From Nitrospirota bacterium (GTDB lineage Bacteria; Nitrospirota; JACRHJ01): a stretch of 64,000 nt of DNA. Shown here one piece after another: positions 3-43,723 of the stretch (within the stretch, counting starts at the first letter, position 1; every line of letters starts with the position of its first letter). Both the position numbers and the translations under genes were made by a program. The notes below the pieces were generated by a model, which did not search any database, was not told the origin of the DNA, and saw only the letters and a list, made by a program, of their open reading frames with translations. The stretch covers positions 325,186 to 389,185 of the forward strand of contig CAVOSJ010000006.1 of assembly GCA_963698885.1 (NCBI GenBank), given 5' to 3'.

Positions 3-525
3 ATGACGGATTTCGCCGCCCTGGAGACCCGCCTTCGGCAGTTCCCCGGGATCAAGTTCATAGGGCACGGGCCGCTCTTCTGGGAAGGCATTTCCCTGGA
101 AGGCACCACGGAGGGGGTCCTGCCGCGCGGCAGGGTGATAGCCGGCGGGATAACGGTTAAGCTCATGGACGAGTACGACAACCTCTATGCCGACCTGTCG
201 GGCTATTCGGGCTACAGGGGACTCACGAGAGACCCCGGCGTTCGCACGGCAATTCATAATAAGGCATTCCGGCGAGATACTGTACGGGACCGACAACTTC
301 TTCCTGGGCCTTAAGCGATTTTTAGAGTCGCTTAAGCTCCCGGAGGACTGCGCCCGGCGCATATACGGTGAGAATGCATTACGGATCACGGGTGGAGCGG
401 GAGGGCTTTCGGAACCGAAACGCCTGAATACACAGGTAAGGCCTGCTGGTCCTTCAAATCACACGGGAAACGCGTCCGGCTTGGCGCGGCCTGACACATA
501 CGACACAGTCTTCAAGGAGGATTAG
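3..525 (+). CDS. amidohydrolase-family (TIM-barrel metal-dependent hydrolase) protein, 3' fragment entering the window; reading frame switches between ORF 3..314 and ORF 187..525
   Basis: C-terminal region ...FIIRHSGEILYGTDNFFLG...RIYGENALRITG resembles amidohydrolase C-termini; two overlapping ORFs in different frames imply an indel around 190-260. Confidence 0.35.
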
Positions 526-527
526 CC

Positions 528-2360
528 ATGTGCGGAATTGTGGGATATATAGGCGAAAAAAACGCCGTACCCATTCTCCTGGCGGGTCTTAAAAAGCTGG
601 AGTACAGGGGGTACGACTCCGCCGGCATCGCCTTCCTCCAGGACGGCAGTCTCGGCATCAGGCGCAGCGTCGGAAAGCTTAGGAACCTGGAGTCGGCCAT
701 AGAGGGAGAGGCCTGCATCTCCGGGGTAGGCATCGGGCATACCCGCTGGGCGACACATGGGAAACCCAGCGAGGCCAACGCACACCCCCACCGCTGCGGC
801 AAGGTGGCGGTAGTCCATAACGGCATTATCGAGAACTACGCCCAGCTAAGGACCGAGCTGGTACAACGGGGGCATACGTTCAAATCGGAGACAGACACTG
901 AAGTCATTGCACATCTTATAGACGATGGGCTTACAGAAGGGCTGGACCTGGAAGCCGCGGTAAGGCGGGGCCTAAGCCAACTGAAGGGCTCGTATGCGAT
1001 AGGCGTGGTGGTTGAGGACCGCCCGGACGTGCTGGTGGCCGCCCGCGCCGGCTGTCCGCTGGTGATAGGCCTGGGCGCCGGCGAATTTTTCATAGCCTCG
1101 GACCTCCCGCCGATACTGGGATACACGAAAGAAATCATATTCCTGGACGACTACGAGATGGCGGTGCTGTGCAGGGACGGAGTGAAGGTGACGGCCTTGG
1201 ACGGCTCCGCCAGGAAAAAAGACATAAGCCAGGTAAAGTGGAGCCCCGCGATGGCGGAAAAAGGGGGCTACAAGCATTTCATGCTTAAAGAGATATACGA
1301 GCAGCCCCAGGCGATCCGCGATACCTTCCTGGGCAGGATAGACGCCCCATCCGGCAGCGTCTCGTTTGAAGATTTAAACATCCCGGACGAGGTCTTGAAG
1401 ACGGTAAAAAAGGCCGCGCTTATCGCCTGCGGCACCTCCTGGCATTCGTGCCTGATAGCGAAGTTCATGCTGGAAGAGCTGGCCAGGCTCCCGGTGGAGG
1501 TGGATATCGCATCCGAGTTCAGGTACAGGAACCCTATAGTCGGCGCGGACACCCTGTTCGTGGCGGTAACGCAGTCCGGCGAGACGGCGGATACGCTGGC
1601 CGCGATGCGCGAGGCCAAAAAACTCGGGGCCAGGACGATTGCCATATGCAACGTGGTCGGAAGCACCGCGAGCCGGGACGCGGACGGCGTGATATACACC
1701 CACGCAGGCCCTGAGATAGGCGTCGCATCCACCAAGGCATTCACGGCACAGCTCACCGCTCTCTTCCTGCTCGCGGTCCGCATGGGTACCCTTCGCGGAA
1801 CGCTGGATAAGGAAAAAGCCGCCGCGTTACTTGGTGAGCTGACGGCCATACCGGAGAAGGTGGGACGCACCCTTTCCGTAATGGAAGACGAGATGGGCAA
1901 GCTGGCTAAAATTTTTTACAAAAGCAGCGACTTCCTTTACCTCGGGCGGGGGTACAGCTATCCGACGGCCCTGGAGGGCGCGCTGAAGCTGAAGGAAATT
2001 TCTTATATACATGCCGAAGGCTATCCGGCGGGAGAGATGAAACACGGGCCGATCGCGCTTATAGACGAGAACATGCCCGTGGTAGTCCTCGCGCCATCGG
2101 ACGACGTTTTTGAGAAAGTGGCTTCAAATATCGAGGAAGTCCGTTCGCGGGGCGGTCAGGTTATCGCCTTTGTGACGGACGGAGACTGGAAGCTGGAGGG
2201 GAAGGCAAACTATTTATACCGGGTGCCCGGCACCGTCCCATGTCTGACGCCTGTGTTGATGGCCATACCCCTCCAGCTCCTCGCCTATAAAATAGCGCTC
2301 TTAAGGGGGAGCGACGTGGACCAGCCGCGCAACCTGGCCAAGAGCGTAACGGTCGAATAG
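528..2360 (+). CDS. glmS: glutamine--fructose-6-phosphate aminotransferase (isomerizing)
   Basis: 610 aa; N-terminal MCGIVGY amidotransferase nucleophile, SIS-domain body, C-terminal ...KSVTVE; AAGGAGG RBS upstream. Confidence 0.95.
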   Translation: MCGIVGYIGEKNAVPILLAGLKKLEYRGYDSAGIAFLQDGSLGIRRSVGKLRNLESAIEGEACISGVGIGHTRWATHGKPSEANAHPHRCGKVAVVHNGIIENYAQLRTELVQRGHTFKSETDTEVIAHLIDDGLTEGLDLEAAVRRGLSQLKGSYAIGVVVEDRPDVLVAARAGCPLVIGLGAGEFFIASDLPPILGYTKEIIFLDDYEMAVLCRDGVKVTALDGSARKKDISQVKWSPAMAEKGGYKHFMLKEIYEQPQAIRDTFLGRIDAPSGSVSFEDLNIPDEVLKTVKKAALIACGTSWHSCLIAKFMLEELARLPVEVDIASEFRYRNPIVGADTLFVAVTQSGETADTLAAMREAKKLGARTIAICNVVGSTASRDADGVIYTHAGPEIGVASTKAFTAQLTALFLLAVRMGTLRGTLDKEKAAALLGELTAIPEKVGRTLSVMEDEMGKLAKIFYKSSDFLYLGRGYSYPTALEGALKLKEISYIHAEGYPAGEMKHGPIALIDENMPVVVLAPSDDVFEKVASNIEEVRSRGGQVIAFVTDGDWKLEGKANYLYRVPGTVPCLTPVLMAIPLQLLAYKIALLRGSDVDQPRNLAKSVTVE

Positions 2361-2397: not shown

Positions 2398-3765
2398 ATG
2401 GAAACTTTTATCGAAAGAAATGAAAGCAGGAAGTTACAGAAGGCCGATATCTTTGAAGCCCTCCTGGAAAAGATCGAAACCCGCCGGGCCACGGTCGGCG
2501 TGATAGGCCTGGGATACGTAGGACTCCCCCTGGTGCAGGCGTTCACGGGGGCCGGGTTTCCTGTAATCGGGTTTGATAAGGACACCGAAAAGATAGAACA
2601 TCTCACCGCAGGGACGAGCTACATAAAGCACATCACCGATTCCTCCGTCACCGAGATGACCGGCTCCGGCAGGTTCTCAGCGACTGCCGATTTCGACAGG
2701 CTCAAAGAGGCCGACTGCATCCTCATCTGCGTGCCCACTCCGCTGAACGAGTACCGCGAGCCGGACCTCTCTTACGTGTTGAACTCGACGGCGGCGGTGG
2801 CAAGGACGCTCCGGGCGGGACAGCTGGTCGTACTCGAATCCACCACCTATCCCGGCACGACGGACGAGGAGATGCGCTCCGTCCTGGAGAAGACGGGGCT
2901 TCAGGCGGGCAAGGATTTTTTCCTCGCTTTCTCGCCGGAGCGCGAGGACCCCAATAACGGCAGCTTCAATACGGCCAGCATCCCCAAGGTCGTCGGCGGA
3001 TACACCGGCAAATGCCTCAAGGTCGCGAATACCCTTTACTGCGGCATCATCAAAAGGACCGTCCCGGTATCGTCCACCCGCGTGGCCGAGGCGACGAAAC
3101 TGCTCGAGAACATCTTCAGGAGCGTAAATATCGCGCTGGTCAACGAGCTGAAGGTGCTGTTCGACCGGATGGACATAGACGTCTGGGAAGTCATCTCGGC
3201 GGCAAGCACCAAGCCCTTCGGCTACATGCCGTTTTATCCCGGCCCGGGGCTCGGCGGGCACTGCATACCCATCGACCCGTTCTACCTCACCTGGAAGGCC
3301 CGCAAGTACGACTTCAATACGCGCTTCATCGAGCTGGCGGGCGAGATTATCACGTCCATGCCCTATTACGTGATGGATAAGACGGCGCAGGCGTTAAACC
3401 ACCACGGCAAGGCGCTTAAAGGGGCGAAGGTGCTGGTGCTTGGGGTCGCATACAAGAAGAACGTGGACGACATGCGGGAGTCCCCGTCCCTCAAGATCAT
3501 CAACCTCCTGATGGAGAAAGAGGCGAAGGTGGAATACTCGGACCCGTACGTCCCGAAGATACCGAAGCTCAGGAAATACAAGCTGGACATGGCCTCGGTG
3601 CCGCTGACGGAGAAGAACCTCTCGAAGTATGACGTGGCCATGATACTCACGGACCACGGCAGCTTCGATTACGAATTCATCTATGAACACTCGAACCTCA
3701 TAATAGATACCCGTAACGCGATGGCGGGGATAAGAGACACCAAAAAGAAGATTTTCAAGGCATAG
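2398..3765 (+). CDS. nucleotide-sugar 6-dehydrogenase (UDP-N-acetyl-D-glucosamine/mannosamine dehydrogenase family; WbpA/WecC/TviB-like)
   Basis: 455 aa; N-terminal Rossmann GLGYVGLP, UDP-glucose/GDP-mannose dehydrogenase family architecture; first gene of a WbpA-B-D-E-like set. Confidence 0.85.
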   Translation: METFIERNESRKLQKADIFEALLEKIETRRATVGVIGLGYVGLPLVQAFTGAGFPVIGFDKDTEKIEHLTAGTSYIKHITDSSVTEMTGSGRFSATADFDRLKEADCILICVPTPLNEYREPDLSYVLNSTAAVARTLRAGQLVVLESTTYPGTTDEEMRSVLEKTGLQAGKDFFLAFSPEREDPNNGSFNTASIPKVVGGYTGKCLKVANTLYCGIIKRTVPVSSTRVAEATKLLENIFRSVNIALVNELKVLFDRMDIDVWEVISAASTKPFGYMPFYPGPGLGGHCIPIDPFYLTWKARKYDFNTRFIELAGEIITSMPYYVMDKTAQALNHHGKALKGAKVLVLGVAYKKNVDDMRESPSLKIINLLMEKEAKVEYSDPYVPKIPKLRKYKLDMASVPLTEKNLSKYDVAMILTDHGSFDYEFIYEHSNLIIDTRNAMAGIRDTKKKIFKA

Positions 3766-3776
3766 AGGAGGATCAG

Positions 3777-4758
3777 ATGAGAAAGCCGGCGGTCGCCGTG
3801 ATAGGCGCGGGATACTGGGGCAAGAACATAATCAGGGCTCTGCACAAGCTTGACGCTCTCTCATGCATCTGCGATTCGAGCGATAAGGCGCTCGAACTCC
3901 AGAGAGAGGCATACGCGGGCGTGCGCACGGAGACGGATTACCAGGCGGTCCTGGATGACGCCACGATAACCGCCGTAGCCATAGCATCACCCGCCGCAAG
4001 ACACGCGGATATGATACGGCAGGCCCTGGAGGCGGGCAAGGACGTTTATGTGGAAAAGCCTCTCTGCCTTTCCGAATCAGAAGGCGCGTCTTTGGTGGCG
4101 TTGGCGGCCAGCCTGGGGAGGGTGCTGATGGTGGGGCATCTCCTGCATTACCACGACGCGGTGGTGAAGTTAAAAGAGATGATAAGCCAGGGGGAGATGG
4201 GGAAGATCCATTATATATACTCGAACCGGCTGAACCTGGGCAAGTTCAGGAGCGAGGAGAACGCGCTATGGAGCTTCGCGCCGCACGATGTCTCCGTGAT
4301 ATTGGGGTTAGCGGGAGAGATGCCTGAAACCGTATTCTGCAACGGCGGGGCCTTCCTGCAGGAAGGGGTCCACGACAGCACCTGCGCCCTGTTGAGCTTT
4401 CCCTCCGGGATGAGGGCTCACATATTCACAAGCTGGCTGAACCCGTTTAAAGAGCAGAAACTGGTGGTTGTGGGGAGCCGGAAGATGGCCGTTTTCGACG
4501 ACGTGCAGGCCCCGGAGCGGAAACTTCTGATTTATCCGCACGTCATCAACTGGAAGGGGAACTTCCCCGTGCCGGAGAAGAAGGAACCGGAAGCCGTGGG
4601 ACTTCAGGGCTCGGAGCCTCTTTTAAACGAGATGTCCCACTTCCTTGACGTGCGTGACGGAACGGAAAGTACCCGTGACCGACGGCGCGGAGGGTTTAAG
4701 GGTCCTGAAGGTGCTCCAGGCGTGCCAGAAGTCGCTCGATACCGGGACGAAGGTATCG
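3777..4758 (+). CDS. Gfo/Idh/MocA-family NAD-dependent oxidoreductase (WbpB-like); frame switches from frame 3 to frame 1 near 4650-4670 and no stop codon precedes the next gene
   Basis: N-terminal [11 protein letters not shown] Rossmann motif; C-terminal ...[25 protein letters not shown] continues in the frame of ORF 4645..5364. Confidence 0.7.
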
Positions 4759-5364
4759 ATGCCCGAAAAAAAGGAAACCTTCTTCGCCCATCCGACCGCA
4801 GTCGTCGACCAGCCCGCGGATATCGGCGAGGGGACGTCCATCTGGCACTTCACGCACGTGATGAAGGACTGCAGGATCGGCCGCTCATGCAACATCGGCC
4901 AGAACGTGGTCATATCGCCGGGCGTGAAGGTCGGGGATAAGGTGAAGATACAGAATAACGTCTCGGTCTACACCGGCGTGGTGCTGGAAGACGGCGTCTT
5001 CTGCGGCCCTTCCATGGTGTTCACGAACGTGATGAACCCGAGAAGCTACGTATCCCGGCGTGACGAATATAAAGAGACGCTGGTAAAGGAAGGCGCGACC
5101 CTGGGCGCGAACTGCACCGTGGTCTGCGGGCATACCATAGGGAGGTTCGCATTCGTCGGAGCGGGCGCGGTGGTCACGAAGGACGTGCCGGACTACGCCC
5201 TGGTGGTCGGGAATCCGGGCCGGATAATCGGGTACATGTGCGAGTGCGGCGCCAGGCTCTCTTTTAATGGAGAAGAAGCGGATTGCCCGGCCTGCGGCGC
5301 GTCGTATGAAAAGAGAAGCGGAAGAGTAGAGAGGAGGCAAAAAATTGAAAGTACCGTTGCTTGA
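4759..5364 (+). CDS. hexapeptide-repeat N-acetyltransferase (WbpD-like)
   Basis: ATG at 4759 gives [18 protein letters not shown]...; left-handed beta-helix hexapeptide repeats ([44 protein letters not shown]). Confidence 0.75.
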
Positions 5365-6467
5365 CCTGAAAGCGCAATACAGCACCATTAAAGAAGACGT
5401 TATCGGCGCCATGATGGAGGTGCTGGAGGCCCAGCATTTCATCCTCGGGCCGAAGGTTACGGAACTGGAGCGGCAGGTCGCCCAGTACTCGGAAACCAAG
5501 TGGGGAATAGGCGTATCCTCCGGAAGCGACGCCCTCATCATATCCCTGATGGGTCTTGAGGTAGGCCAGGGTGATTATGTCATCACCACGCCGTATACCT
5601 TTTTCGCCACGGCCGGCGCGGCCGCAAGAGTGGGCGCAATCCCCGTGTTCGCGGACATCGACCCGAAAACATATAATATCGACCCGGCAAAAATAGCCGA
5701 GGCGGCCGCAAAGATACCCAAGGGTAAACTGAAGGCGATAATACCGGTGCATCTCTACGGCCAGTGCTGCGACATGGACGGGGTCATGGAAGTCGCGCGC
5801 GAATACGGCGCGGCGGTAATCGAGGACGCGGCCCAGGCGATAGGCGCAAGGGACCGCCACGGCCGCCCGGCCGGGAGCATCGGGGATACCGGGTGCTTCT
5901 CGTTCTTCCCCAGCAAGAACTTGGGCTGCTTAGGTGACGGCGGGATGGTGGTGACAAGCCGCGACGAGCCTGAAGGACAAGCTGACCATACTCCGCGCGC
6001 ATGGAAGCAGTCCCAAATATTTCCATAAGATAATCGGCGGCAATTTCCGCCTGGACGCCCTCCAGGCGTCGGTGCTCTCGGTGAAGCTCAGGCACCTGGA
6101 CCTCTGGAGCGAGAAGAGGCAGGAAAACGCGGACCTGTACAACATGCTGCTTGCCGATGCCGGGCTTCCGGTCGAGACGCCGTATATAGAAGAAGGATGC
6201 CGGCATATATTCAATCAATACGTAATCCGGGCGAAGGACAGGGACCTCTTAATGAACTTCCTGAAGGAAAAAGGAGTCGGTTCGGAGGTGTATTATCCCC
6301 TTCCGATGCACCTTCAGGAGTGTTTTAGCTATCTGGGGTATAAAGAAGGCGATTTCCCCGAAAGCGAGAAGGCCGCAAGACAGACCCTCGCGCTGCCGGT
6401 ATACCCGGAGCTCAGCTCGGACGCGATAGCCTACGTCGTGGAGCGGATAAAGGAATTTTACGCTTAA
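5345..6467 (+). CDS. DegT/DnrJ/EryC1/StrS-family PLP-dependent sugar aminotransferase (WbpE-like); one apparent +1 indel near 5960
   Basis: ORFs 5345..6028 and 6072..6467 are the N- and C-terminal parts of one aminotransferase (LLDLKAQY..., ...GDGGMVVT then [32 protein letters not shown] in a shifted frame); AGGAGG RBS upstream. Confidence 0.8.
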
Positions 6468-6480
6468 AGTGGAGTCAGCC

Positions 6481-7698
6481 ATGAAAAAAATGCTCATACC
6501 TTTTTCCGTACCCTTTATCGGTAAGGAGGAGATCGACTCCGTGGTCGATACCCTGAGGTCCGGCTGGCTCACTACCGGGCCCAAGACGAAACAGTTCGAG
6601 GCGGACTTCGCCTCGTACATAGGCTGCAAGCACGCCATAGCCGTAAACTCCTGCACCGCGGCTTTGCATCTGGCGATGGATGCGGTAGGGGTGGGTAAGG
6701 GTGATAGTGTCCTGACCACTCCCATGACTTTCGCCGCGACCGCGGAAGTCATCGAATACATGGGGGCGACGCCGAGGTTCGTGGACATAGACCCGGGTAC
6801 GCTGAATATGTCGCCCGCGCTCCTCGAGCAGACGCTTCTGTCCATGCCAGAGGAGGAGCGCGCAAAGGTAAAGGCGATAATCCCGGTGCATATGGCCGGA
6901 CAGCCCTGCGACATGGACCCCATAACCGAAACGGCAAAGAGATACGGGCTGAAGGTCGTGGAGGACGCGGCGCATACCATGCCCGCCAGATACAAGGGGC
7001 GGATGGTGGGGACGATTAGCGGGATAACGTGCTTCTCCTTCTATCCCACAAAGTGCATCACCACGGGAGAAGGGGGGATGGTGACCACGGACGACGATGA
7101 ATATGCGGACCGGATGCGGGTGATGAGCCTGCACGGGATCTCAAGGGGCGCGTGGAACCGCTACTCGAAGGAAGGCTCCTGGTATTACGAGGTCCTTGAG
7201 CCGGGCTTCAAGTATAACCTGCCGGACGTCCTTTCCGCTATCGGCATCGGGCAGCTAAGGCGCTCGGAGGAGCTGCTGGAGCTTCGGATGCGGCACGCCG
7301 AAATCTATAACCAGGCCTTTAAGGATATGCCGGGGATAGAGTTGCCGGAGATCTCTCCGGACGTGGAACATTCATGGCACCTGTACATCATCAAGCTGAA
7401 CCTGGAGATGCTCTGCATAGACAGGGGGCAATTTATAGAGGAGCTTCGGGAGCGCGGCGTGTTCGCGTCGGTCCACTTCATCCCCCTGCACATCCACCCG
7501 TATTACCGGGAAAAATACGGCTATGAACCGTCCGATTTTCCGAGGGCGGATGAGCAATACCAGAGGATGCTCTCACTGCCGTTTTATCCGAAAATGAGCG
7601 ACGAGGAGTTGGATTACGTCATAGAAACTGTCAGGGAGGTCCTTGAAAGGAACTATGTTAAGCAAATTGCCGAGACGGGCAGCGGCTTAGCCGCGTAA
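6481..7698 (+). CDS. second DegT/DnrJ/EryC1/StrS-family sugar aminotransferase (PglE/PseC/ArnB-like)
   Basis: about 405 aa; MKKMLIPFSVPFIGKEEIDSVVDTLRSGWLTTGPK..., PLP-fold conserved blocks, intact frame. Confidence 0.85.
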   Translation: MKKMLIPFSVPFIGKEEIDSVVDTLRSGWLTTGPKTKQFEADFASYIGCKHAIAVNSCTAALHLAMDAVGVGKGDSVLTTPMTFAATAEVIEYMGATPRFVDIDPGTLNMSPALLEQTLLSMPEEERAKVKAIIPVHMAGQPCDMDPITETAKRYGLKVVEDAAHTMPARYKGRMVGTISGITCFSFYPTKCITTGEGGMVTTDDDEYADRMRVMSLHGISRGAWNRYSKEGSWYYEVLEPGFKYNLPDVLSAIGIGQLRRSEELLELRMRHAEIYNQAFKDMPGIELPEISPDVEHSWHLYIIKLNLEMLCIDRGQFIEELRERGVFASVHFIPLHIHPYYREKYGYEPSDFPRADEQYQRMLSLPFYPKMSDEELDYVIETVREVLERNYVKQIAETGSGLAA

Positions 7699-7712: not shown

Positions 7713-10256
7713 ATGGGAATCCTAAAAAGGTTATTCGATATTGTGTTCTCATTGTTGGGGCTTGTCTTTCTCTCCCCGTTTTTGTGCCTCTCGGCGCTTG
7801 CGATAAAGATGCAGGACGGCGGGCCGGTATTTTTCAGGCAGGAGAGGATAGGGAAGGGCCTTCGGCCCTTCAAGATGTACAAGTTCCGCTCGATGACCCC
7901 TGAAACGTCCGGGACGGGCCCTTCCATCACGGTGGAAGGCGACGCGAGGGTGACGAAGCTCGGCAGGGCCTTAAGGAAGATGAAGGTGGACGAACTGCCC
8001 CAGCTTATAAACGTCCTGAAGGGGGATATGAGCCTGGTCGGGCCGCGCCCGGAGGTATGGAAATACGTAAACCATTTCATATCCGATTTCCGGGAGGTGC
8101 TGAAAGTACGCCCCGGCATCACCGACTACGCATCCATTATTTATCATGACGAGGAGGAAGTGCTAAGGAGCTCGGACGACCCGGAGAATTTTTATCTCAA
8201 GACGATACTCCCGGCGAAGATCGAGCTGAACAAACGCTACGTGCGGGAGATGAGTTTAGTCCGCGACGTGGACATAATCATGCGGACGTTCGCCGCCCTT
8301 TTCCAGAGCCGGTTCGCGCGGTGCGGCGGGCTGTTCCGCGCCACGGTCTGCGAGCTGTGCGGCACTACGGCCAAACGGTTCTACACCGCCAGGGAATTTA
8401 TACTTACCTACAGGCGTTTCTTCGTCTTCTTCTTTCACGCCTCCGCCGTAGCAATCGCGAATTATATCGCGTTCGCGCTCCCGTTCGAAGGAGCGGCGCC
8501 CGCAAGTCTCGCCCGGATCGTGCCGTACTCGATACTGCTCGTCCTGGCGGTGCGCCTTCCGCTCTTCAAGGCCTTCGGCCTGTACAAGGGTCTCTGGAAA
8601 TATACCGGTATCGGCGACGTAATCAGGATAGTCTTTTCCGTCACCGTCGGGACGCTGGTATATATGACGCTCGATCGCATCTGGCTCTTCGGGGCCCTGG
8701 ACATTCCGCTATCGGTCGTCGTCATGGACTGGCTCCTGACGCTGGCGCTCATCAGCAGCACAAGGCTCCTGCTCAGGATCTACGAGGACTACGTCGTTTC
8801 CGACAAGCAGGGGAAAAAGGTCCTTATAATCGGCGCGGGCAACGCCGGCGAAATGATCGTCAGGGACATGCGCAAGAACCTGCACCTGCACAAGCCGGTC
8901 GGCTTCGTGGACGACGACCGGCGCAAGAAGGGCCTGTCCATTCACGGCGTTCCCATACTTGGGACTACCGAAGACCTGTTCGCCATAATAAGCGAATACA
9001 GGCCGGAAGAGGTGCTTATCGCGATACCCTCCGCGAAGCCCGATACCATGATGGCCCTGATGAAGAGGTTAGTTGAGTTTAAGCTCCCGATAAAGACCCT
9101 GCCCTCCATCAGCGACATCATAAGCGGGCGCGTGAGCGTCAAGCAGATAAAACCGCTGGAACTGGAAGACTTGATGGCCCGGCCTCCGATTCAGGCGGAC
9201 AGGGTGCTGTTGGGCGCTTTCATACAGGGGAGGACGGTCATGGTCACCGGGGCCGGGGGTTCTATCGGCTCCGAGATTTGCAGGCAGGCGCTGGCCCTCG
9301 GCGCGAAGGCGGTCGTCGCGTACGAGCGGCACGAGAACAGCCTGTATAACCTGGAGATGGAAGTCCGGAGCAAGGACAAAAATGCGCCCCTGTACCCGGT
9401 CATCGGCGACGTAAACGACAGGCACAGGCTGGACGAAATCTTTACCACCTATATGCCCGATACCGTCTTCCACGCCGCGGCGCACAAGCACGTCCCGATG
9501 ATGGAGGTGAACCCGCGCGAGGCGATATACAATAATATCCTGGGCACCCGCAAATGCGCGCTCCTTGCCGGAGAGCACGGAGTGGAGCGGTTCGTCCTTA
9601 TCTCCACCGACAAGGCGGTCAACCCGAGCTCCGTGATGGGCGCCTCGAAACGCGCCTGCGAGCTCGTAGTCCACGCGTTTAACGAAGGCTCCTCCACCAA
9701 GTACATCACCGTCCGGTTCGGGAACGTCCTTGGCTCGTCGGGGAGCGTCGTGCCGCTATTCAGGGACCAGATAAAGCGCGGCGGCCCCGTGACTATAACC
9801 CACCCGGACATCGTGCGCTTCCTGATGCTGATACCGGAGGCTGTACAACTCGTGCTCCAGGCGGCAAGCATCGGGGACGGCGGCGAGATATTCGTGCTGG
9901 ACATGGGCGAGCCGATGAAGATCGCGGACCTTGCCAGGAACTTGATCGTCCTGGAAGGCTATGAGCCCGATAAAGACATCAAGCTGGAATATGTCGGCCT
10001 CAGGCCTGGCGAAAAGCTCTACGAGGAGCTATTCGATAAAAGCGAGGACGTCTCCCTGACTAAGGCGAGCAAGGTATTCATGGCCATATCGAAGGACCTT
10101 CCGGACCGGGCCGCGATAGCGAAGTTCGGGCACCTGCTTGAGCAGTGCGTGATAAGGAAGGATACCGACGGGATGCTAAGGCAGCTCTGCAGGCTGGTGA
10201 ATACCTATACGTACAACGGGCAGGTGGCCGCGGAGGAAATAAAGAAGGCGGCGTAG
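7713..10256 (+). CDS. fusion ORF: N-terminal PglC/WbaP-C-type phosphoglycosyl (sugar) transferase domain + C-terminal membrane-anchored CapD/PglF/WbpM-type UDP-sugar 4,6-dehydratase
   Basis: 847 aa in one frame; residues 1-200 match bacterial sugar transferase (KMYKFRSM, VGPRPEV, RPGITD); remainder has TM helices then SDR-extended dehydratase (TGAGGSIGSEI, HAAAHKHVP, STDKAVNP). Confidence 0.8.
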   Translation: MGILKRLFDIVFSLLGLVFLSPFLCLSALAIKMQDGGPVFFRQERIGKGLRPFKMYKFRSMTPETSGTGPSITVEGDARVTKLGRALRKMKVDELPQLINVLKGDMSLVGPRPEVWKYVNHFISDFREVLKVRPGITDYASIIYHDEEEVLRSSDDPENFYLKTILPAKIELNKRYVREMSLVRDVDIIMRTFAALFQSRFARCGGLFRATVCELCGTTAKRFYTAREFILTYRRFFVFFFHASAVAIANYIAFALPFEGAAPASLARIVPYSILLVLAVRLPLFKAFGLYKGLWKYTGIGDVIRIVFSVTVGTLVYMTLDRIWLFGALDIPLSVVVMDWLLTLALISSTRLLLRIYEDYVVSDKQGKKVLIIGAGNAGEMIVRDMRKNLHLHKPVGFVDDDRRKKGLSIHGVPILGTTEDLFAIISEYRPEEVLIAIPSAKPDTMMALMKRLVEFKLPIKTLPSISDIISGRVSVKQIKPLELEDLMARPPIQADRVLLGAFIQGRTVMVTGAGGSIGSEICRQALALGAKAVVAYERHENSLYNLEMEVRSKDKNAPLYPVIGDVNDRHRLDEIFTTYMPDTVFHAAAHKHVPMMEVNPREAIYNNILGTRKCALLAGEHGVERFVLISTDKAVNPSSVMGASKRACELVVHAFNEGSSTKYITVRFGNVLGSSGSVVPLFRDQIKRGGPVTITHPDIVRFLMLIPEAVQLVLQAASIGDGGEIFVLDMGEPMKIADLARNLIVLEGYEPDKDIKLEYVGLRPGEKLYEELFDKSEDVSLTKASKVFMAISKDLPDRAAIAKFGHLLEQCVIRKDTDGMLRQLCRLVNTYTYNGQVAAEEIKKAA

Positions 10257-13527: not shown

Positions 13528-13588
13528 GCATCACTTAAATCTGGACGCACTGCAGTCCGCTTTAGCAATAAGTTTAGGAGTGCATTTG

Positions 13589-15487
13589 ATGGTCCTCGGC
13601 TTCTTAGGAAGCGGAAAGTTCAAGTGGGGGCTTATCGGCGCTTTAGCAGGCGTTGCGGCCCCCATTTTCTTTTTCATCCTCCAGCCTTCCGTACAAAACC
13701 GTGGCACGTTGTTCGCCTTGGGCGTCGCCTTATGCTCTGCCTGGGCGGTTGGCCTGGGCGGGCTTCTTTTTGGCCACCTCCGGGACGGGGACCTTAAGTA
13801 CCGCCAAAAGATGGAGCTCCGGGAAAAAGAGGTCACGGTGCTGGAGTCTCTTTCCGAAGCGATGTCCGGCACGAAAAACCTGGATTCGCTCCTACACTCC
13901 GCGCTCCGCGAGACCATCGAGTTTTCTTTTTTAAACGGCCTCACGAGATGCGCCGCGTTCGTGAAGGAATCGGCGGACGGGCCGCTCAAGCTTGCCGCGA
14001 AGATAGACAGGGACCCCAGGCTGGGCTCGTTTGAGAAAGATATAGAAGCCTGGAAGAGCCTGTGCGGCATTGCCGCCGAGACCGGCGAGATGATCATCTG
14101 TCCGGACGCCTCCAAAGACGAGCGGGTGCCTTCCGCGGAGCCGAGGGGATATGTCGCGGTCCCGCTGAAAAGCGCCGACAGAGTCCTGGGCGTCCTGGTT
14201 TACTGTCTGCCTGAAAATAGCACTCCCACATTCGAAGATGCGAAGCCGCTCTTTGCCGCCGCGGCCAGGATATGCTCATACGCCGAAAACCTCATGCTCT
14301 CCGGCCAGGCGCTCATGGTCTCCGAAGACATGGCGAAAAACGAACAGACGCTGGCTAAGAAGGTGGCCCAGCTCCATTCGCTGGTGGAGGTTGACCGCAT
14401 CATCCTCTCCACCATGGACAGAGACGAGATGCTGCACAAGGTCAGCGTGCAGATACGTACCCTCGTCCCGGCGGACCTTGGCGGCGTCGCGTTATGCGAC
14501 CCGGAGACCGGCGACTTCCGCTACATCGGCGGCTGGGGGATGGAGATACGAAACCGCGAGATACTTCAGACCTCGGACTGGCTGGGCAGCCCGGTCTTAA
14601 ACCGGGGGAAGCCGATGACGAGGAAGAATATCGACGAGGATATAATCCTCTCTCCCTTCGACAAGCTCCTGCACGAGTTGGGGGTGAAGTCGGACCTGTA
14701 CGCCCCCATCATCCGTAAGGGGAAGACGGTGGGGATATTCTTTCTCGGGTGCTTCAGGGAGGGCGCTTTTAACATGGAGGACGTGGATACCACCGTGGTC
14801 TTCGCCTCCAGGATGGGCCTCGCCTTAGAGCACGTCCGGCTCATCTACGACTTAGATGAGATGTCGGTGAACATCATCCATGCCCTGGCCTCCGCCATCG
14901 ACGCCAAAAGCTCGTGGACGAAAGGCCATTCGGAGCGCGTCTCCGATTACTCCCTGGCGATCGCCGAACGGATGGGCATGGCAAAACGCGAAATAGAGCG
15001 CCTACGTCTGGCCGGCCTCCTGCACGATATCGGCAAGATCGGGACGTACGACGTACTGCTGGACAAGACCGGCAGGCTGACGGACGAGGAATGGGAGCTT
15101 ATCAAGCTCCACCCGTCAAGGGGCTGCGAGATACTCGAACCTATAACGGAGTTCCGGGACATCCTTCCCGCCGTCAGGCACCACCACGAGCGCTGGGACG
15201 GCACCGGCTACCCGTCCGGGCTTCGCGGAGAGGCCATACCCCTCATGGCGCGCATCCTCACCGTCGCTGACTCGTTCGACACCATGACCGCGGACAGGCC
15301 GTACCGCTCCGCTATCGGCGTAACCAACGCCATACAGGAAATCCGTTACTGCACCGGGACGCAGTTCGCACCCGATGTCGCGGACGTATTCCTCCGGCTC
15401 GTCACGGAAAAGGGGGCGGACCTGAACCTGCTTCGGCAGAATGCAACCCACAGAGGCGCCTTCCCCGCCGCTTCCGGAACGTTATAA
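13589..15487 (+). CDS. membrane-anchored GAF-domain HD-GYP phosphodiesterase (c-di-GMP signalling)
   Basis: N-terminal TM helices, GAF region, C-terminal HD-GYP core (LAGLLHDIGKIG, HHERWDGTGYP); ATG at 13589 is 10 nt after AGGAG. Confidence 0.85.
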   Translation: MVLGFLGSGKFKWGLIGALAGVAAPIFFFILQPSVQNRGTLFALGVALCSAWAVGLGGLLFGHLRDGDLKYRQKMELREKEVTVLESLSEAMSGTKNLDSLLHSALRETIEFSFLNGLTRCAAFVKESADGPLKLAAKIDRDPRLGSFEKDIEAWKSLCGIAAETGEMIICPDASKDERVPSAEPRGYVAVPLKSADRVLGVLVYCLPENSTPTFEDAKPLFAAAARICSYAENLMLSGQALMVSEDMAKNEQTLAKKVAQLHSLVEVDRIILSTMDRDEMLHKVSVQIRTLVPADLGGVALCDPETGDFRYIGGWGMEIRNREILQTSDWLGSPVLNRGKPMTRKNIDEDIILSPFDKLLHELGVKSDLYAPIIRKGKTVGIFFLGCFREGAFNMEDVDTTVVFASRMGLALEHVRLIYDLDEMSVNIIHALASAIDAKSSWTKGHSERVSDYSLAIAERMGMAKREIERLRLAGLLHDIGKIGTYDVLLDKTGRLTDEEWELIKLHPSRGCEILEPITEFRDILPAVRHHHERWDGTGYPSGLRGEAIPLMARILTVADSFDTMTADRPYRSAIGVTNAIQEIRYCTGTQFAPDVADVFLRLVTEKGADLNLLRQNATHRGAFPAASGTL

Positions 15488-31837: not shown

Positions 31838-32813
31838 TCAGAATGACAGGTTCACGGCCTCCCGCACTTCCTCCATCGTCTCCCCCGCGACCTTGCGGGC
31901 GGTCTCTGCCCCGGCCTTCAGCATCTCACGCGTCTCGTCCTCACGGCCTGTCAGCGCGGCCCTTTTCTCCCGGAATGGCGCAAGGTAAGTGCTTAATATT
32001 TCGGCTAAATAGCTCTTGTGCTTCACGCAGCCAAGCCTTCCGGCCCGGCAGCCCTCATCGGCTAAAGGCGCGTCATTTGGCCCGAACGCCTTGTGGTAGT
32101 CCTGGACGGAGCAGATGTCCGGGTCGCCCGGGTCGGTCGCGTGGATTTTCTTAGGGTCCGTAATGAGTTGCATCACTTTCGGCTTCAATCTCTTCCGGCG
32201 GCTCGTCCAAAAAAATGGCGTTATTCAAGGACTTGGACATCTTCCGGCCGTCCGTGCCCGGCAGCTTCGGGGTCTGTGTCAGGAGCGCCTTCGGCTCCGG
32301 AAAAACCTGTTTATACCGATGGTTAAACGCCCTCGCGATCTCTCTGGCAAGCTCGATATGCGGGACCTGGTCAACCCCAACCGGCACCGCGCCCGCCTTG
32401 TATAACATTATGTCCGCCGCCTGAAGCACCGGGTATCCCATCAGGCCGTAGTTCACGCCATGTAAGTGCATGTCTTCAATCATGTTTTTTAGCGTCGGGT
32501 CCCGCTCCAGCCAGGGCATGGGGGTAATCATCCCGAAAAGGAGATAAAGCTCCGCATGCTCCTTCACATCGGACTGGACGAATACCGTCGAGCGGGAGAA
32601 ATCGATACCCAGCGCCCGCCAATCCAAAGCCATTTCCATAATGTTTTTAGGAAGTTCGGAGGTATCGGCGTAGGCGGTGGTCAGGGCGTGCCAGTCGGCG
32701 GCCATGAAAAAACATTCATACTCTTCCTGCAACGATAGCCAGTTGCCGAGCGCGCCGACTAAGTGCCCGATATGCAGTCTGCCGGTAGGCCGCATCCCGG
32801 ATAAGAGCCTCAT
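31838..32813 (-). CDS. trpS: tryptophan--tRNA ligase; one apparent frameshift near 32160-32190
   Basis: ORF 32151..32813 has class-I aaRS HIGH (TGRLHIGH) and KMSKS motifs; the C-terminal anticodon-binding part continues in ORF 31838..32188. Confidence 0.9.
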
Positions 32814-34480
32814 AAAGCAAAATCTCCCGCCTCCAGGTGTTCCTTTATGCGGTGCAGGAACTCATTCGCGGTCAAGCCGTCAACCACACGGTGGTCGTAG
32901 GAGAGCGCTATGTACATCATGGGCCGGATGGCGATGGCGTCCTCGCCGTCTTCCGCCGTAACTACCACGGCGCGCTTTACCAGCTCTCCCATCCGGAGTA
33001 TCCCCACCTGCGGCTGGCTGATTATCGGCGTCCCGAACAGGTTTCCATGCCTGCCGGGATTTGTCACGGTGAACGTCCCGCCTGCCATTTCGTCGGGGGT
33101 TATCTTTTTATCCCGCACTTTTACGGAAATCTCGGAGAGCGCCTTTGCCAAATCCAGCAGGGACATATCCTCCGCGCCCTTTATCACCGGGACCATCAGG
33201 CCCCGCTCGGAGTCCACGGCCACGCCCAGATTTATATGCCGCTTCGTAAGGATAGCATACCCCTGAACCACCGAATTCATCAGCGGGAACTCCTTCAAGG
33301 TCCTGATCGCCGCCGCCATGACGAAAGGCGTGTAAGTAAGGCTTATTCCCACTTCTGCCTTGATTTTATCTTTATTACGCTGTCGTATCCCCACTATATG
33401 TTCAAAATCGGCTTCCGTTATGGTCGTAACATGGGCCGACGTCCTTTTGCTGTAAACCATGTGGTCGGCGATTAATAGTCTGAGGCGCGAGAACGGAAGC
33501 TCCGCGTCACCCTCTTCTACTTCATAGGAAGGCGGCTTATATACCCCGTATCCTGCATGCATTTCAGGCGGGGGGGCCGACTCCAGAAGCTCTTCCTGCA
33601 CTATCCGGGGCGAAGGCGCCGGTTGACCGGCTTCGGACTTAATTTCTTTCCCTTCTCGCCTCTCTTTCTCCGGCTTTCCCCCTGCAGGCACCGTCTCTTC
33701 CGGCCCGGCCTTTTTCTCCGCGAGCACGCGCATAACGTCCGCCTTGGTTACCCGACCGCCTTCGCCGGTGCCTTTAATGGCCTTTAAATCCACGCCATGC
33801 TCCATAGCCAGGCGCATGACCGCAGGCGAGTAAAACCCGGACTTATCTGTGATCGCTCCCGCTGCTGCCTCAGGTTCCGGTACCTCCCGTTTTATCTCCG
33901 GCGGGGGGGTCAACTCCTCTTCGGGCCGGGTTTCCCGCTTTGCCTCGACGGCAGGGATTCCTTCCGCACGCGCGGGATGCTCCGACGGGCCGTCTCTTTT
34001 TATCGCCATCTCCGGCGGTTTGCCCTCTACAGTGGTCTTTGCCTCCGAGGTCTCTTGCGGAGGCGCAGTCTCTACCTTCGCGGTCTCAACCTTTTTTTCT
34101 ATTTCCGAACCAGGAACGCCTTCGGCAGGCTTCATGGCTTCCGGTTTCTCAGGCACGGCCTCTTCCGGCTTCGCGGCCTCCGGCGTTTCTGGTTTTTTGG
34201 GCTCCATAGCTCCCGGTTTAGGAGCATCTTTCCCCACTACCGCCGGTTTTTCATCAATCCTCGCTATTAACGCTCCCACTTGTATCGTTTCGCCCTCTTT
34301 GGCGATTATCTCCGTAAGGACGCCGGAAACGGGCGACGGGACATCCACGTCCGCCTTGTCCGTGGAGACCGTCACCAACGGATCATCGGCTTTTACCTTC
34401 TGCCCCTCATCCACCAGCCAGACGGATATCGTCCCTTCGGCTATGCTCTCCCCCATCTGGGGCATCTTTACGTCGGTCAT
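32810..34480 (-). CDS. 2-oxoacid dehydrogenase E2 component (dihydrolipoamide acyltransferase) with long Pro/Glu/Ala-rich linker
   Basis: N-terminal lipoyl domain (VSTDKADVDVPSPVSG), E3-binding domain, C-terminal catalytic domain with DHRVVDG motif. Confidence 0.9.
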   Translation of the reverse strand: MTDVKMPQMGESIAEGTISVWLVDEGQKVKADDPLVTVSTDKADVDVPSPVSGVLTEIIAKEGETIQVGALIARIDEKPAVVGKDAPKPGAMEPKKPETPEAAKPEEAVPEKPEAMKPAEGVPGSEIEKKVETAKVETAPPQETSEAKTTVEGKPPEMAIKRDGPSEHPARAEGIPAVEAKRETRPEEELTPPPEIKREVPEPEAAAGAITDKSGFYSPAVMRLAMEHGVDLKAIKGTGEGGRVTKADVMRVLAEKKAGPEETVPAGGKPEKERREGKEIKSEAGQPAPSPRIVQEELLESAPPPEMHAGYGVYKPPSYEVEEGDAELPFSRLRLLIADHMVYSKRTSAHVTTITEADFEHIVGIRQRNKDKIKAEVGISLTYTPFVMAAAIRTLKEFPLMNSVVQGYAILTKRHINLGVAVDSERGLMVPVIKGAEDMSLLDLAKALSEISVKVRDKKITPDEMAGGTFTVTNPGRHGNLFGTPIISQPQVGILRMGELVKRAVVVTAEDGEDAIAIRPMMYIALSYDHRVVDGLTANEFLHRIKEHLEAGDFAL

Positions 34481-38871: not shown

Positions 38872-39486
38872 TTACGCCGCCCTTCCCAGGGCCTCATCCA
38901 GTTTCAGGGATGTCTGAAGGCGCTTCTCCACCACGTTCCAGTCTATGTTCTGGAAGAACGCGTCAAGGTATGCCGCGCGCTTTACGCCGTAGTCTATCAT
39001 GTAGGCGTGCTCATAGACGTCCAGTATCAGAAGCGGGATCTCATTCCAGATAGCGCCGATATCGTGCATATCCATCATGTAGTTGTGCAAAGTGTTGTCG
39101 TTCATGCTCCAGGAGAGCACGGCCCAGCCGCGTCCGGACATTCCGACCGCCTTGAACTGTGCCATCCAGTTATCGAACGAACCCCAGCGCTCTTTTATCA
39201 TCTCCGCTATCCTGCCGCCTGGCGCGCCTCCCTTGCCGCCGAGGTTCTCGAAATACCACTCGTGCAGAAAAACGGCGTTTGTCGTAAAGGACTTCTCCTT
39301 GAACATCTCCCGGATAACGGCGTAAGTGGCGTTTGCGCCTTCGGTCGGCGCTTTTTTTATCTCTTCCTCAAACATGTTCAATTTATCCACGTATCCCTTA
39401 TAGAGCACGTCCCTGTGCTCCTGGATCTGCCTGTCGGAAATGCCCTTGAGTTTACCTTCCAGCTTGAATTCCTTTACTTTGTGCAT
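38872..39486 (-). CDS. Fe/Mn-family superoxide dismutase-like protein
   Basis: about 204 aa; SOD-like blocks incl. DVYEHAYMIDYG (variant of the DxWEHAYY signature); AGGA RBS before internal ATG 39486. Confidence 0.65.
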   Translation of the reverse strand: MHKVKEFKLEGKLKGISDRQIQEHRDVLYKGYVDKLNMFEEEIKKAPTEGANATYAVIREMFKEKSFTTNAVFLHEWYFENLGGKGGAPGGRIAEMIKERWGSFDNWMAQFKAVGMSGRGWAVLSWSMNDNTLHNYMMDMHDIGAIWNEIPLLILDVYEHAYMIDYGVKRAAYLDAFFQNIDWNVVEKRLQTSLKLDEALGRAA

Positions 39487-39728
39487 GATTGTACCGTCCT
39501 TTCTAATACGCGAGGCTAAGACAAAAAAGAAATGCGGCAAGGATTCTGCCGCAGGCGGCCGACTTCAAAAAGTATAACAAAGATTTAAGCAGTGTCAATT
39601 TTATAGAACAATTTTAAGTATTTTGATTAATAGGCGCGACTTGCGGACGGTAAAAATCCGTGGTATAAATTTATACAAAGGAATTTATTTTTATTGACGG
39701 TGCAATTCCGTTGCCTGAAGGAGACCTT

Positions 39729-41262: not shown

Positions 41263-41274
41263 AAGGGGGCAGGT

Positions 41275-41736
41275 ATGGCGGACAGGGAAATATTGCTGGT
41301 GGAGGATAACCCGGACGACGTCGAGCTTACGCTTCGCTCGTTCAAGGCAAACAACATTTGCAATAAAGTCGTTATCGCCCAGGACGGCGCGCAAGCGCTT
41401 GATTTTCTTTTCAGCACGGGCGCATATTCCGGGAGCAGCAGCAGACTGCCCCAGCTCGTGCTGCTTGACCTTAACCTGCCGAAGATATCGGGCCTGGACG
41501 TGCTGAAGCGCATCAGAAGCGACGAAAGGACAAAATGTCTGCCGGTAGTGATACTTACCTCCTCCAACGAGGAGAAAGACCTTATAACCGGCTACGCGCT
41601 GGGCGCAAACAGCTACGTGCGAAAGCCGGTGGATTTTGTCCAGTTCAACGAAGCCATAAAACAGCTCGGCCTCTACTGGCTTATCTTAAACGAATCGCTG
41701 CCGCAGACAAGGGAACCGAATGAAAAAGCCGCTTAG
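41275..41736 (+). CDS. single-domain response regulator (CheY-like receiver)
   Basis: 153 aa; LLVEDNPDD...LVLLDLNLP...receiver fold. Confidence 0.85.
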   Translation: MADREILLVEDNPDDVELTLRSFKANNICNKVVIAQDGAQALDFLFSTGAYSGSSSRLPQLVLLDLNLPKISGLDVLKRIRSDERTKCLPVVILTSSNEEKDLITGYALGANSYVRKPVDFVQFNEAIKQLGLYWLILNESLPQTREPNEKAA

Positions 41737-43723
41737 GGCATTGATTGTGGAAGACTCGGAAGACGACGCTATCTTAATGGCGGAGGAACTCCGGCGCGCG
41801 GGGTATGAGGTCTATTTCGAGAGGGTCGAGACGCCGGAAGAAATGTCCGAGGCCGCCCTGAGAGGGGGCTGGGACGTCATACTCTCGGATTACGTTATGC
41901 CCCGGTTCGACGGCCTGACGGCGCTTAAGCTCCTGAAGGAAAAGGGCCTCGATATCCCCTTCATCCTGGTTTCCGGAAAGATCGGCGAAGACACGGCTGT
42001 AGAGGCCATAAAGGCCGGGGCCTGCGATTATGTCATGAAGGACAGGATGGTAAAGCTCGCGCCCTCGGTGAAAAAGGCCCTCTCCGAGCACGAGTTGATG
42101 ATGGAAAGGGACCGGGCGCAGGAGGCGTTGAAGACCGAGCTGGAGGTATCCAACGCCCTGCTCAAGATGGCCGAGATAACGAGCGCGTCCCTTGACTGGG
42201 ACGAGACTGCGGATAAGGTGCTTCACGTCCTGAAGGGGATTATACATTTTGAGGGCGCGGCCGTGATGCTGGCGGAGGCGGACGGCACGCTGACCCCCAG
42301 GAAAGCGGTAGGTTGCGACGGCGGCATGCATTCCATGTTGATGGAGATGCGGCCAAGGCTGGCGGACGTCCCGGCGCTCGAGAAGGTGATGCTGACCAGG
42401 AAGCTTTTAAAAATAGGGGAAGAGGAGCTGCCCGGCCTCATCCCGGATTATATCGCGGCAAACCTGAAACTCAAGGAAGTGATTATTGCACCCGTTATGG
42501 CGAGGGAGCGAGTAGCCGGGTTCCTGGGGGTGAACTTTAAGAAAATCGGCGGCGATTCACGCGTCCCGGCCTTGATAAAGGGCATCGCGGACCAGCTTGG
42601 CGCGGCCTTTGAAAACGCCAGCCTTTACGAGGAGACCCAGAAGAAAAGGCTGGAGCTGGCAAAGGGTATGGAGGCGCTCAGGGTGCTGCATGAGATAGAC
42701 AGGATGATACTGTCCACTCTCGACAGGGACGAGATGCTGTCAAGGGTCTCGCTGCAGATAAAAAGGCTTATCCCGGCGGACGCGGGGTGCCTTTTACTGC
42801 TGGACGGGGAGGAGAAGACGCTTAGGGTAAACTGCGGCTGGGGTGCGGACTTTAAAAAAGACGAGCGGTTCATGCTGGACGGTTTCCCCGGCGCCGATAC
42901 GTTCCTTTCAGGCAGGCCGGTGATGAGGGCCGACGTCCTGAACGAGGCGAGGGAAAGCGGGGAGGATACCGTATTTCGTGACGCGGTAATCCGTTCCGAG
43001 ATAATCGTCCCGATAATGAGCAAGGGGACCGGACGGGGGCTGATCAGGCTCGGGAGCCAGAGGGTGGCGGGTTTCACTTTCGAGGATACGGCGACGGCTG
43101 AAAAACTGGCGTACCAGATAGGGATAGCGCTCGAGAATACGCGCCTGATAGCAGACCTGGAGGAGGTGTTGATAAACACAGTCCAGGCGCTTTCCTCCGC
43201 GATAGACGCAAAAAGCCACTGGACGCGCGGACATTCCACCCGCGTCACGGGCTATGCTGTGCGGGCTGGAAAAGAGCTGGGCCTTACAGACGAGCAGATG
43301 GAGAGGCTTAAGTTAGCTGGCCTTCTGCACGATATCGGGAAAATCGGGATACTGGATGCATTGCTGGACAAGCCGGGCGCGCTGACGATTGATGAGTACG
43401 AAGCGATTAAAAAACACTCCGACAGGGGGGCGGAGATACTCGCGCCCATAAGGCAGTTCAGGGATATCGTACCGTGCATACGCCACCACCACGAACGTTG
43501 GGACGGCAAAGGCTATCCCCTCCATCTGCAGGGAGAACAGATACCTTTCATGGCACGGATATTATCGGTCGCGGACTCTTTCGACTCCATCACCGCCGAC
43601 AGGCCTTACAGGAAGGCCAATGACAGGAACTTCGCTTTCGAGGAGCTTATGAAATGCTCGGGGACGCAGTTTGAGCCGAAGGTCGTGGACGCTTTCATCA
43701 GTATGCTGAAGGAGCCCGATTAG
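41720..43723 (+). CDS. response-regulator receiver + GAF + HD-GYP phosphodiesterase
   Basis: 667 aa; receiver (ALIVEDSEDD, ILSDYVMP), GAF region, HD-GYP core (LAGLLHDIGKIG, HHERWDGKGYP); paralogous to 13589..15487. Confidence 0.85.
   Translation: MKKPLRALIVEDSEDDAILMAEELRRAGYEVYFERVETPEEMSEAALRGGWDVILSDYVMPRFDGLTALKLLKEKGLDIPFILVSGKIGEDTAVEAIKAGACDYVMKDRMVKLAPSVKKALSEHELMMERDRAQEALKTELEVSNALLKMAEITSASLDWDETADKVLHVLKGIIHFEGAAVMLAEADGTLTPRKAVGCDGGMHSMLMEMRPRLADVPALEKVMLTRKLLKIGEEELPGLIPDYIAANLKLKEVIIAPVMARERVAGFLGVNFKKIGGDSRVPALIKGIADQLGAAFENASLYEETQKKRLELAKGMEALRVLHEIDRMILSTLDRDEMLSRVSLQIKRLIPADAGCLLLLDGEEKTLRVNCGWGADFKKDERFMLDGFPGADTFLSGRPVMRADVLNEARESGEDTVFRDAVIRSEIIVPIMSKGTGRGLIRLGSQRVAGFTFEDTATAEKLAYQIGIALENTRLIADLEEVLINTVQALSSAIDAKSHWTRGHSTRVTGYAVRAGKELGLTDEQMERLKLAGLLHDIGKIGILDALLDKPGALTIDEYEAIKKHSDRGAEILAPIRQFRDIVPCIRHHHERWDGKGYPLHLQGEQIPFMARILSVADSFDSITADRPYRKANDRNFAFEELMKCSGTQFEPKVVDAFISMLKEPD

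Follow-up and report, generated by a model that had tools for sequence, protein, structure and literature searches.

The stretch of DNA analysed here, referred to as the window, comprises 64,000 nucleotides (nt) of contig CAVOSJ010000006.1 from a Nitrospirota bacterium (assembly GCA_963698885.1, positions 325,186 to 389,185), and its positions 3777-5364 probably hold one gene for a two-domain protein of ~528 amino acids (aa), a predicted member of a large and widespread natural fusion family in which a Gfo/Idh/MocA oxidoreductase is joined to a sugar N-acetyltransferase, while the change of reading frame within the gene is most likely an error in the sequence. Chance does not account for the open frame that links the two halves, since four contigs of ~92% identity and hundreds of remoter homologues have this junction uninterrupted as well. 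Sequence comparison strongly supports the view that the fusion is old and widespread and that its product is a genuine bifunctional protein.

As the sequence stands, the gene is spread over two open reading frames (ORFs) of the forward strand, 3777..4940 (frame 0, 387 aa) and 4645..5364 (frame 1, 239 aa), which jointly encode one protein. The first encodes the oxidoreductase as far as ...NEMSHFLD and is out of frame from there on, and the second, by a segment of 54 residues, spans the passage from the oxidoreductase tail to the hexapeptide acetyltransferase with no stop codon between them. In the three-frame translation a 12-residue oxidoreductase segment in frame 0 is followed by a 36-residue segment in frame 1, and this frame stays open through an 18-residue segment of the hexapeptide acetyltransferase up to its end at 5364. 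Removal of one base yields a product of 528 aa with the Pfam domains GFO_IDH_MocA (residues 6-121), GFO_IDH_MocA_C (133-327), and Hexapep (348-398), and only after this removal at 4647/4648 does the window copy fit the uninterrupted two-domain ORF of ~520-565 aa found in the fusion family. A preliminary description of the locus stated that the oxidoreductase reads into the acetyltransferase without a stop codon, which is borne out by the ORF list, the three-frame translation, and the junction of the relatives. It also placed a frame change near 4650-4670; the change exists, but it is caused by a single extra base at 4647/4648, slightly upstream. The ATG codon at the junction occupies 4759-4761 and a run of seven adenines (A7) occupies 4766-4772, a spacing of 4 nt and not of 3 nt as described before.

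The natural occurrence of the fusion was followed in proteins, in syntenic contigs and in metagenome loci. The repaired protein was searched in a collection of 5.8 billion proteins, which gave 8000 scored matches, 120 of them listed, and all 120 homologues among the matches listed are 521-695 aa long and carry both the Gfo/Idh/MocA and the hexapeptide domains. Their identity extends from 92% (P0001, JGI) and 91% (P0002, from an NCBI Nitrospirota metagenome-assembled genome, GCA_049801375.1, on a 63-kb contig) down to about 57-60%; the remoter ones include proteins named Deltaproteobacteria, Desulfobacteraceae, Chloroflexi, and Nitrospirales, and one fused homologue (P0091) belongs to the complete genome of Nitrospira sp. 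Nam80, where a 4.7-Mb contig encodes it. L001-L004, the contigs on which P0002 and P0001 are encoded, show ~92% DNA identity to the window and the same gene order, i.e., GlmS, a 455-aa nucleotide-sugar dehydrogenase, the 527/528-aa fusion, a 373-aa DegT protein, a 405-aa DegT protein, and an 847-aa transferase/dehydratase, and each of them has an in-frame junction free of stop codons. A protein-guided scan of metagenome contigs gave at least 566 relatives among at least 600 pattern-matching stretches; 80 loci were kept, and an uninterrupted ORF covers both halves in 77 of these. Protein search, family alignment, and metagenome loci together show the fused architecture to be kept from 92% to about 50% identity and across phyla.

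In the family alignment the linker varies in length and sequence and is flanked by conserved blocks on either side. The methionine at the junction of the window protein is leucine in P0002-P0007, and its role as a vestigial start codon was therefore rejected as a conserved feature; the natural N-terminus of the acetyltransferase that had been proposed at this residue is not conserved either. The AlphaFold (AF2) model of P0001 (mean predicted local distance difference test score, pLDDT, of 90) contains two folded domains with a short linker between them, with helices at 280-294 and 302-321 and short regular strands within 334-486. A Foldseek search of this model against the PDB returned no chain that spans both halves (query-normalised TM-score, TMq, at most 0.55). 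Three longer homologues of ~695 aa (P0011, P0012, and P0014) carry a second hexapeptide/left-handed beta-helix (LbH) domain at about 528-607 after the first one, so that a dehydrogenase is combined with two acetyltransferase-like domains.

The preliminary description left two alternatives, a genuine bifunctional enzyme or a lost stop codon, and asked for an ortholog comparison. The homologue survey reported above is such a comparison; it speaks for the genuine fusion, with bifunctionality as a prediction, and in practice refutes the lost stop. That two separate genes, wbpB-like and wbpD-like, lost the stop codon between them by error or mutation in the window is extremely improbable: the enzymes are indeed separate proteins in Pseudomonas aeruginosa, Bordetella, and Thermus (PMC10622841), and the metagenome locus L092 represents an unfused version in which a stop is followed directly by an ATG between the halves, but the stop-less junction is common to the four syntenic contigs, to every listed homologue, and to nearly all kept metagenome loci, and the proteins with leucine at the junction have no internal start there. 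For the frame change the preliminary description gave no cause. It results from a window-specific 1-nt insertion, the extra base: the blastn gap lists and the alignment show it to be absent from all four relatives, with CTT-GACG-TGC in the window, CTT-GCG-TGC (HFL-A-CV) in L001/L002, and CTT-ACG-TGC (HFL-T-CV) in L003/L004, and it falls in a variable codon, for which family members have D, T, A, K, Q, or E. Most likely it is a sequencing or assembly error, since no fewer than seven other single-base frameshifts interrupt conserved genes of the window (Table 1). Counting the one at 4647 there are at least eight, and seven of the eight are +1-nt insertions as judged by frame arithmetic from the ORF coordinates. 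Eight broken genes among roughly sixty in the window, one of them for an essential synthetase and each break flanked by conserved sequence, most likely reflect the pattern of an error-prone assembly and not that of a living genome. The ratio of non-synonymous to synonymous substitution rates (dN/dS), determined in the repaired frame against L001 and L003, is 0.16-0.18 before the shift, 0.05-0.21 in the 37 codons past it, and 0.08-0.15 in the acetyltransferase half; selection therefore acted on a continuous frame during practically the whole time in which these sequences diverged.

A real extra base, which would make the gene a recent pseudogene or the product of a fission with the oxidoreductase truncated and mistranslated past residue 290, is an unlikely reading. 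Under this assumption the acetyltransferase may be produced alone from the ATG at 4759, which is preceded by a Shine-Dalgarno-like GAAGG ~6 nt upstream; the frameshift is present in the sequence as given, and natural unfused or interrupted versions are known (L092, and L111 with its stop in the linker). This reading is opposed by the intact fusion genes of L003/L004, which contain this ATG and GAAGG too, by the low dN/dS downstream of the shift, and by the seven further single-base frameshifts within 64 kb, among them those in the genes for tryptophanyl-tRNA synthetase and the adjoining DegT protein; so many are not plausible in the genome of a free-living organism. Programmed +1 ribosomal frameshifting at CUU-G, similar to that at the CUU-U site of prfB and serving to regulate the full-length bifunctional protein, has hardly any probability: +1 is the shift required and it would lie directly after a CUU leucine codon, but the four ~92% relatives and all remoter homologues are in frame at this position, the A site holds neither a stop nor a rare codon, a Shine-Dalgarno-like stimulator is not evident upstream, and unrelated frameshifts occur in many other genes of the same window. 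The programmed frameshift was rejected as it is not conserved. The A7 run was rejected as a slippage site as well: L003/L004 combine a run of equal length with an intact frame, and in L001/L002 it reads AAACAAA. A degenerate DNA pattern across the frameshift site had no match in the metagenome_contigs set, and the protein-guided scan of this set gave, among the matches listed, relatives of at most 57% identity and no contig of the same species.

Several points weigh against the reading of an intact bifunctional gene damaged only by a sequence error. Sequence comparison does not directly separate an error from a genuine recent mutation, and we infer the attribution; the extra bases do not lie in long homopolymers and thus differ from the classic signature of homopolymer errors. 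Damaged copies exist among the relatives too, with an in-frame stop within the linker of locus L111 and another inside the beta-helix of locus L121 (IG*GTKIW); the latter could reflect a sequence error, a pseudogene, or the use of an alternative genetic code. Literature searches found no paper that describes or characterises a WbpB-WbpD or WlbA-WlbB fusion, so that bifunctionality is a prediction from homology. The N-terminal half falls under the cut-off of every curated equivalog, so that its substrate may be either uridine diphosphate N-acetylglucosamine (UDP-GlcNAc) or the corresponding uronic acid (UDP-GlcNAcA), and no WbpI-like 2-epimerase is present among the window ORFs scanned.

The C-terminal half is clearly WlbB/WbpD-like and is predicted to be a sugar 3-N-acetyltransferase of the class EC 2.3.1.201 with acetyl-CoA-dependent activity on UDP-GlcNAc3NA. 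In a phmmer search of the PDB, query residues 337-511 matched residues 6-183 of the 192-residue chain of WlbB (3MQG) with an E-value of 9.8e-67, and 62% of 160 residues aligned without gaps are identical; the second-best match, the WxcM-like 4MZU, was far weaker (E 1e-39). The label WbpD-like, which the preliminary description had assigned to this half, thus holds. Pfam Hexapep and Hexapep_2 are found at 348-398 of the repaired protein, and these repeats, the strands of the AF2 model, and the Foldseek match to 3MQH (target-normalised TM-score, TMt, of 0.92; root-mean-square deviation, rmsd, of 2.0) all point to a left-handed beta-helix fold. WlbB is reported to have an active-site Asn and Arg (Asn84 and Arg94). 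Candidate counterparts in the query are the Asn of an FTN motif and the Arg of an (E/S)R(K/R) motif, both of which line up with WlbB and show no variation across 44 fused proteins (N416 and R426 of P0001). At its end (~5235-5295, residues ~487-505) the protein carries a CxC-x12-CxxC tail, of which three Cys are invariant and the fourth is more than 90% conserved in the 44 fused homologues. This tail may be zinc-ribbon-like.

The N-terminal half contains Pfam GFO_IDH_MocA, _C, and _C3, and both the nicotinamide adenine dinucleotide (NAD) site GxGxxG (VIGAGYWG) and the EKP motif (VEKP) are present; G10, G12, E93, K94, and P95 are invariant in the family alignment of the fused proteins. Its best curated match is NF040723, the archaeal UDP-GlcNAc 3-dehydrogenase (EC 1.1.1.374), with an E-value of 3.8e-41 over residues 6-319, but the score of 141.6 bits compares with an equivalog cut-off of 450, so that it is not a member of that equivalog. 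The structures 7BVJ/7BVK of GnnA are matched with a TMt of 0.89-0.91, an rmsd of 2.3-3.2, and 24-25% identity, and 3C1A, a protein of unknown function, with 30% identity and a score above that of WlbA. For WlbA itself (3Q2K) the phmmer E-value is 3.9e-10 at about 20% identity, with a Foldseek TMt of 0.78-0.84. WbpB/WlbA are thus not the closest characterised relatives of this half, since 3C1A, NF040723, and GnnA score better. The earlier label WbpB-like agrees with the Gfo/Idh/MocA fold, the motifs, and the gene context, but the relationship to WbpB/WlbA is only distant; the half is best regarded as WbpB-like by genomic context and is, as far as homology can tell, not a demonstrable member of the WbpB/WlbA orthologous group (EC 1.1.1.335).

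The neighbouring genes are collected in Table 1. The WbpA-like 6-dehydrogenase gene and the DegT gene flank the fused gene, with the same layout in L001-L004, and a DegT1-like gene adjoins the fusion in 29 of the 80 metagenome loci; contig ends truncate many of these loci. At the level of families (Pfam, NCBIfam, and synteny) the gene set matches the WbpA/B/E/D route, as had been proposed, but the oxidoreductase is only distantly related to WbpB. The sugar cluster contains another fused enzyme, the 847-aa protein, in which Bac_transf covers residues 5-197, followed by a CoA_binding_3 region and Polysacc_synt_2 at 509-791. In L001 an Acetyltransf_6 (FemAB-like) gene lies between the Amidohydro_2 and GlmS genes (5682-6713) and is absent from the window (401-438).

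Table 1. Features of the fused gene, its neighbourhood, and the other frameshifts of the window.
Feature	Position	Strand	Basis or remark
GlmS (glutamine-fructose-6-phosphate aminotransferase, 610 aa), supplies hexosamine precursor	528..2360	+	syntenic with a 610-aa L001 gene with GATase_6/7 and SIS
Nucleotide-sugar 6-dehydrogenase, WbpA/TviB/WecC-like, 455 aa, immediately upstream of the fused gene	2398..3765	+	Pfam UDPG_MGDP_dh N/central/C; TIGR03026 410 bits, above cut-off; syntenic in L001-L004
AGGAGG ribosome-binding site	3766..3771	+	5 nt before ATG 3777 of the fused gene; read from sequence
Fused gene part 1, frame 0: residues 1-290, predicted Gfo/Idh/MocA NAD-dependent sugar-nucleotide 3-dehydrogenase half	3777..4646	+	Pfam; residues 4-294 of the L001 protein match 3774-4646 at 89% identity (tblastn)
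Extra-base site, frame 0 to frame 1	4647..4648	+	blastn gap lists and alignment of the window with L001-L004
Fused gene part 2a, frame 1: final helix pair of the oxidoreductase half (29 residues) with the beginning of the variable linker	4648..4758	+	family alignment
Fused gene part 2b, frame 1: rest of the linker, predicted WlbB/WbpD-type left-handed beta-helix N-acetyltransferase half, CxC...CxxC tail	4759..5364	+	stop codon 5362-5364
DegT/WbpE-like pyridoxal phosphate (PLP) aminotransferase, 20-nt overlap with the end of the fused gene	5345..6467	+	Pfam DegT 3-190 on 5345-6028 and 230-359 on 6072-6467; split into two ORFs by the extra C; intact (373 aa) in L001/L002
Second DegT-family aminotransferase, PseC/ArnB-like, 409 aa	6469..7698	+	Pfam, NCBIfam
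847-aa fusion of Bac_transf phosphoglycosyl transferase and Polysacc_synt_2 (PglF/WbpM-type) dehydratase	7713..10256	+	Pfam; same length in L001
Frameshift in Amidohydro_2 gene	~237		tblastn comparison
Frameshift (extra C) in the adjoining DegT gene	5969 (5969/5970)		Pfam profile split 3-190 / 230-359; blastn gap list
Frameshift (extra A) in gene for Cys/Met-metabolism PLP enzyme (Cys_Met_Meta_PP)	10618		blastn gap list, tblastn
Frameshift in unnamed conserved gene	~28140		tblastn
Frameshift in UDG-like gene	~29330		tblastn
Frameshift in tryptophanyl-tRNA synthetase (TrpRS) gene	~32185		supported by four relatives; the half with KMSKS is not in the frame of the C-terminal half
Frameshift in ABC ATPase gene	~61545		profile split 2-76 / 87-137

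The known route runs through WbpA (6-dehydrogenase), WbpB (3-dehydrogenase), WbpE (aminotransferase), WbpD (acetyltransferase), and WbpI (2-epimerase) (PMC10622841, PMC7468200). The two activities of the fusion had been described as consecutive steps; they correspond to steps 2 and 4 of this route, with the aminotransferase between them. In the proposed scheme, in which substrates, catalytic roles, and their order are predictions, the N-terminal half would oxidise C-3 of UDP-GlcNAc or UDP-GlcNAcA to a 3-keto sugar, the separate DegT aminotransferase would turn the keto group into an amine, and the C-terminal half, acting as an acetyl-CoA transferase, would N-acetylate this 3-amine. The product would be UDP-2,3-diacetamido-2,3-dideoxy-glucose or the matching glucuronic acid, destined for a surface polysaccharide, and it may be gluco-configured because of the missing 2-epimerase among the ORFs scanned. 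The fusion of two enzymes bracketing the aminotransferase step and the conserved Cys4 tail suggest a possible metabolon: as a speculative idea to which we give little probability, the fused family might serve as a scaffold that recruits the DegT protein and channels labile 3-keto and 3-amino intermediates, with the Cys4 tail as a docking or oligomerisation element.

Beyond the frameshifts listed in Table 1, overlapping ORFs hint at possible, unconfirmed ones near RNase G (25.3 kb) and VWA (53.8 kb) and at 55.2 kb, and several tblastn matches in two frames (LeuC/LeuD, shadow ORFs) were dismissed as artefacts of stop-to-stop ORF calling. A scan of the genome_contigs set with the E2 protein (32810-34480) gave relatives of at most 64% identity, which were used only for detection of frameshifts at the protein level. 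The superoxide-dismutase-like ORF at 38872-39564 on the reverse strand matches the Sod_Fe_C domain only, with no match to the N-domain, and in L007/L005 the corresponding segment shares its frame with a downstream aconitase-family (LeuC-like) gene; a further indel may be the cause, or the gene boundary may lie elsewhere. Given the density of single-base frameshifts, unusual ORF structures elsewhere in the window should be treated as possible artefacts. Paralogous signalling proteins of the GAF plus HD-GYP type (HD_5) are encoded at 13529-15487 and 41690-43723, both on the forward strand, and in the latter a receiver domain forms the N-terminus, with a stand-alone response regulator (41263-41736) encoded ahead of it.

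For annotation, the locus is best described as a single bifunctional gene whose sequence probably contains an error, and neither as two genes nor as a new fusion event. The window gene is a new member of an abundant, database-documented fusion, and its frame change is probably an artefact. The fused family is abundant in Nitrospirota, in lineages of the Deltaproteobacteria type, and in Chloroflexi, and it could offer a convenient system to ask whether enzymes of non-adjacent steps become fused to hold a metabolon together; beyond correct annotation the finding matters little.

The fused architecture has been annotated before, by NCBI as 'Gfo/Idh/MocA family oxidoreductase' and by JGI as 'UDP-2-acetamido-3-amino-2,3-dideoxy-glucuronate N-acetyltransferase', and the database fusions (e.g., P0002, P0091, and the JGI entries) have the same length, domain order, and neighbourhood and match at least 94% of the query at 57-92% identity; the window copy has the one extra base at 4647/4648. 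Among characterised systems, the UDP-GlcNAcA 3-dehydrogenase WbpB/WlbA (3Q2K, Bordetella pertussis) has the same fold as the N-terminal half and the same place in its cluster, where a DegT protein and a WbpA-like dehydrogenase are encoded beside it, yet at about 20% identity it is not the nearest relative, whereas GnnA and NF040723, which act on non-oxidised UDP-GlcNAc, are the best structural and curated matches but are single-domain proteins. The C-terminal half (~337-511) aligns end to end with WlbB/WbpD (3MQG/3MQH, Bordetella petrii), the UDP-2-acetamido-3-amino-2,3-dideoxy-D-glucuronate N-acetyltransferase, with which it shares the predicted left-handed beta-helix; unlike WlbB, the window enzyme would be covalently joined to an oxidoreductase, and its C-terminal CxC-x12-CxxC motif has no counterpart in 3MQG. 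Unfused counterparts are found as adjacent genes in locus L092 and in Thermus thermophilus, where the accessions of the homologues of WbpB and WbpD follow one another directly (PMC10622841), which fits an origin of the fusion from neighbouring genes.

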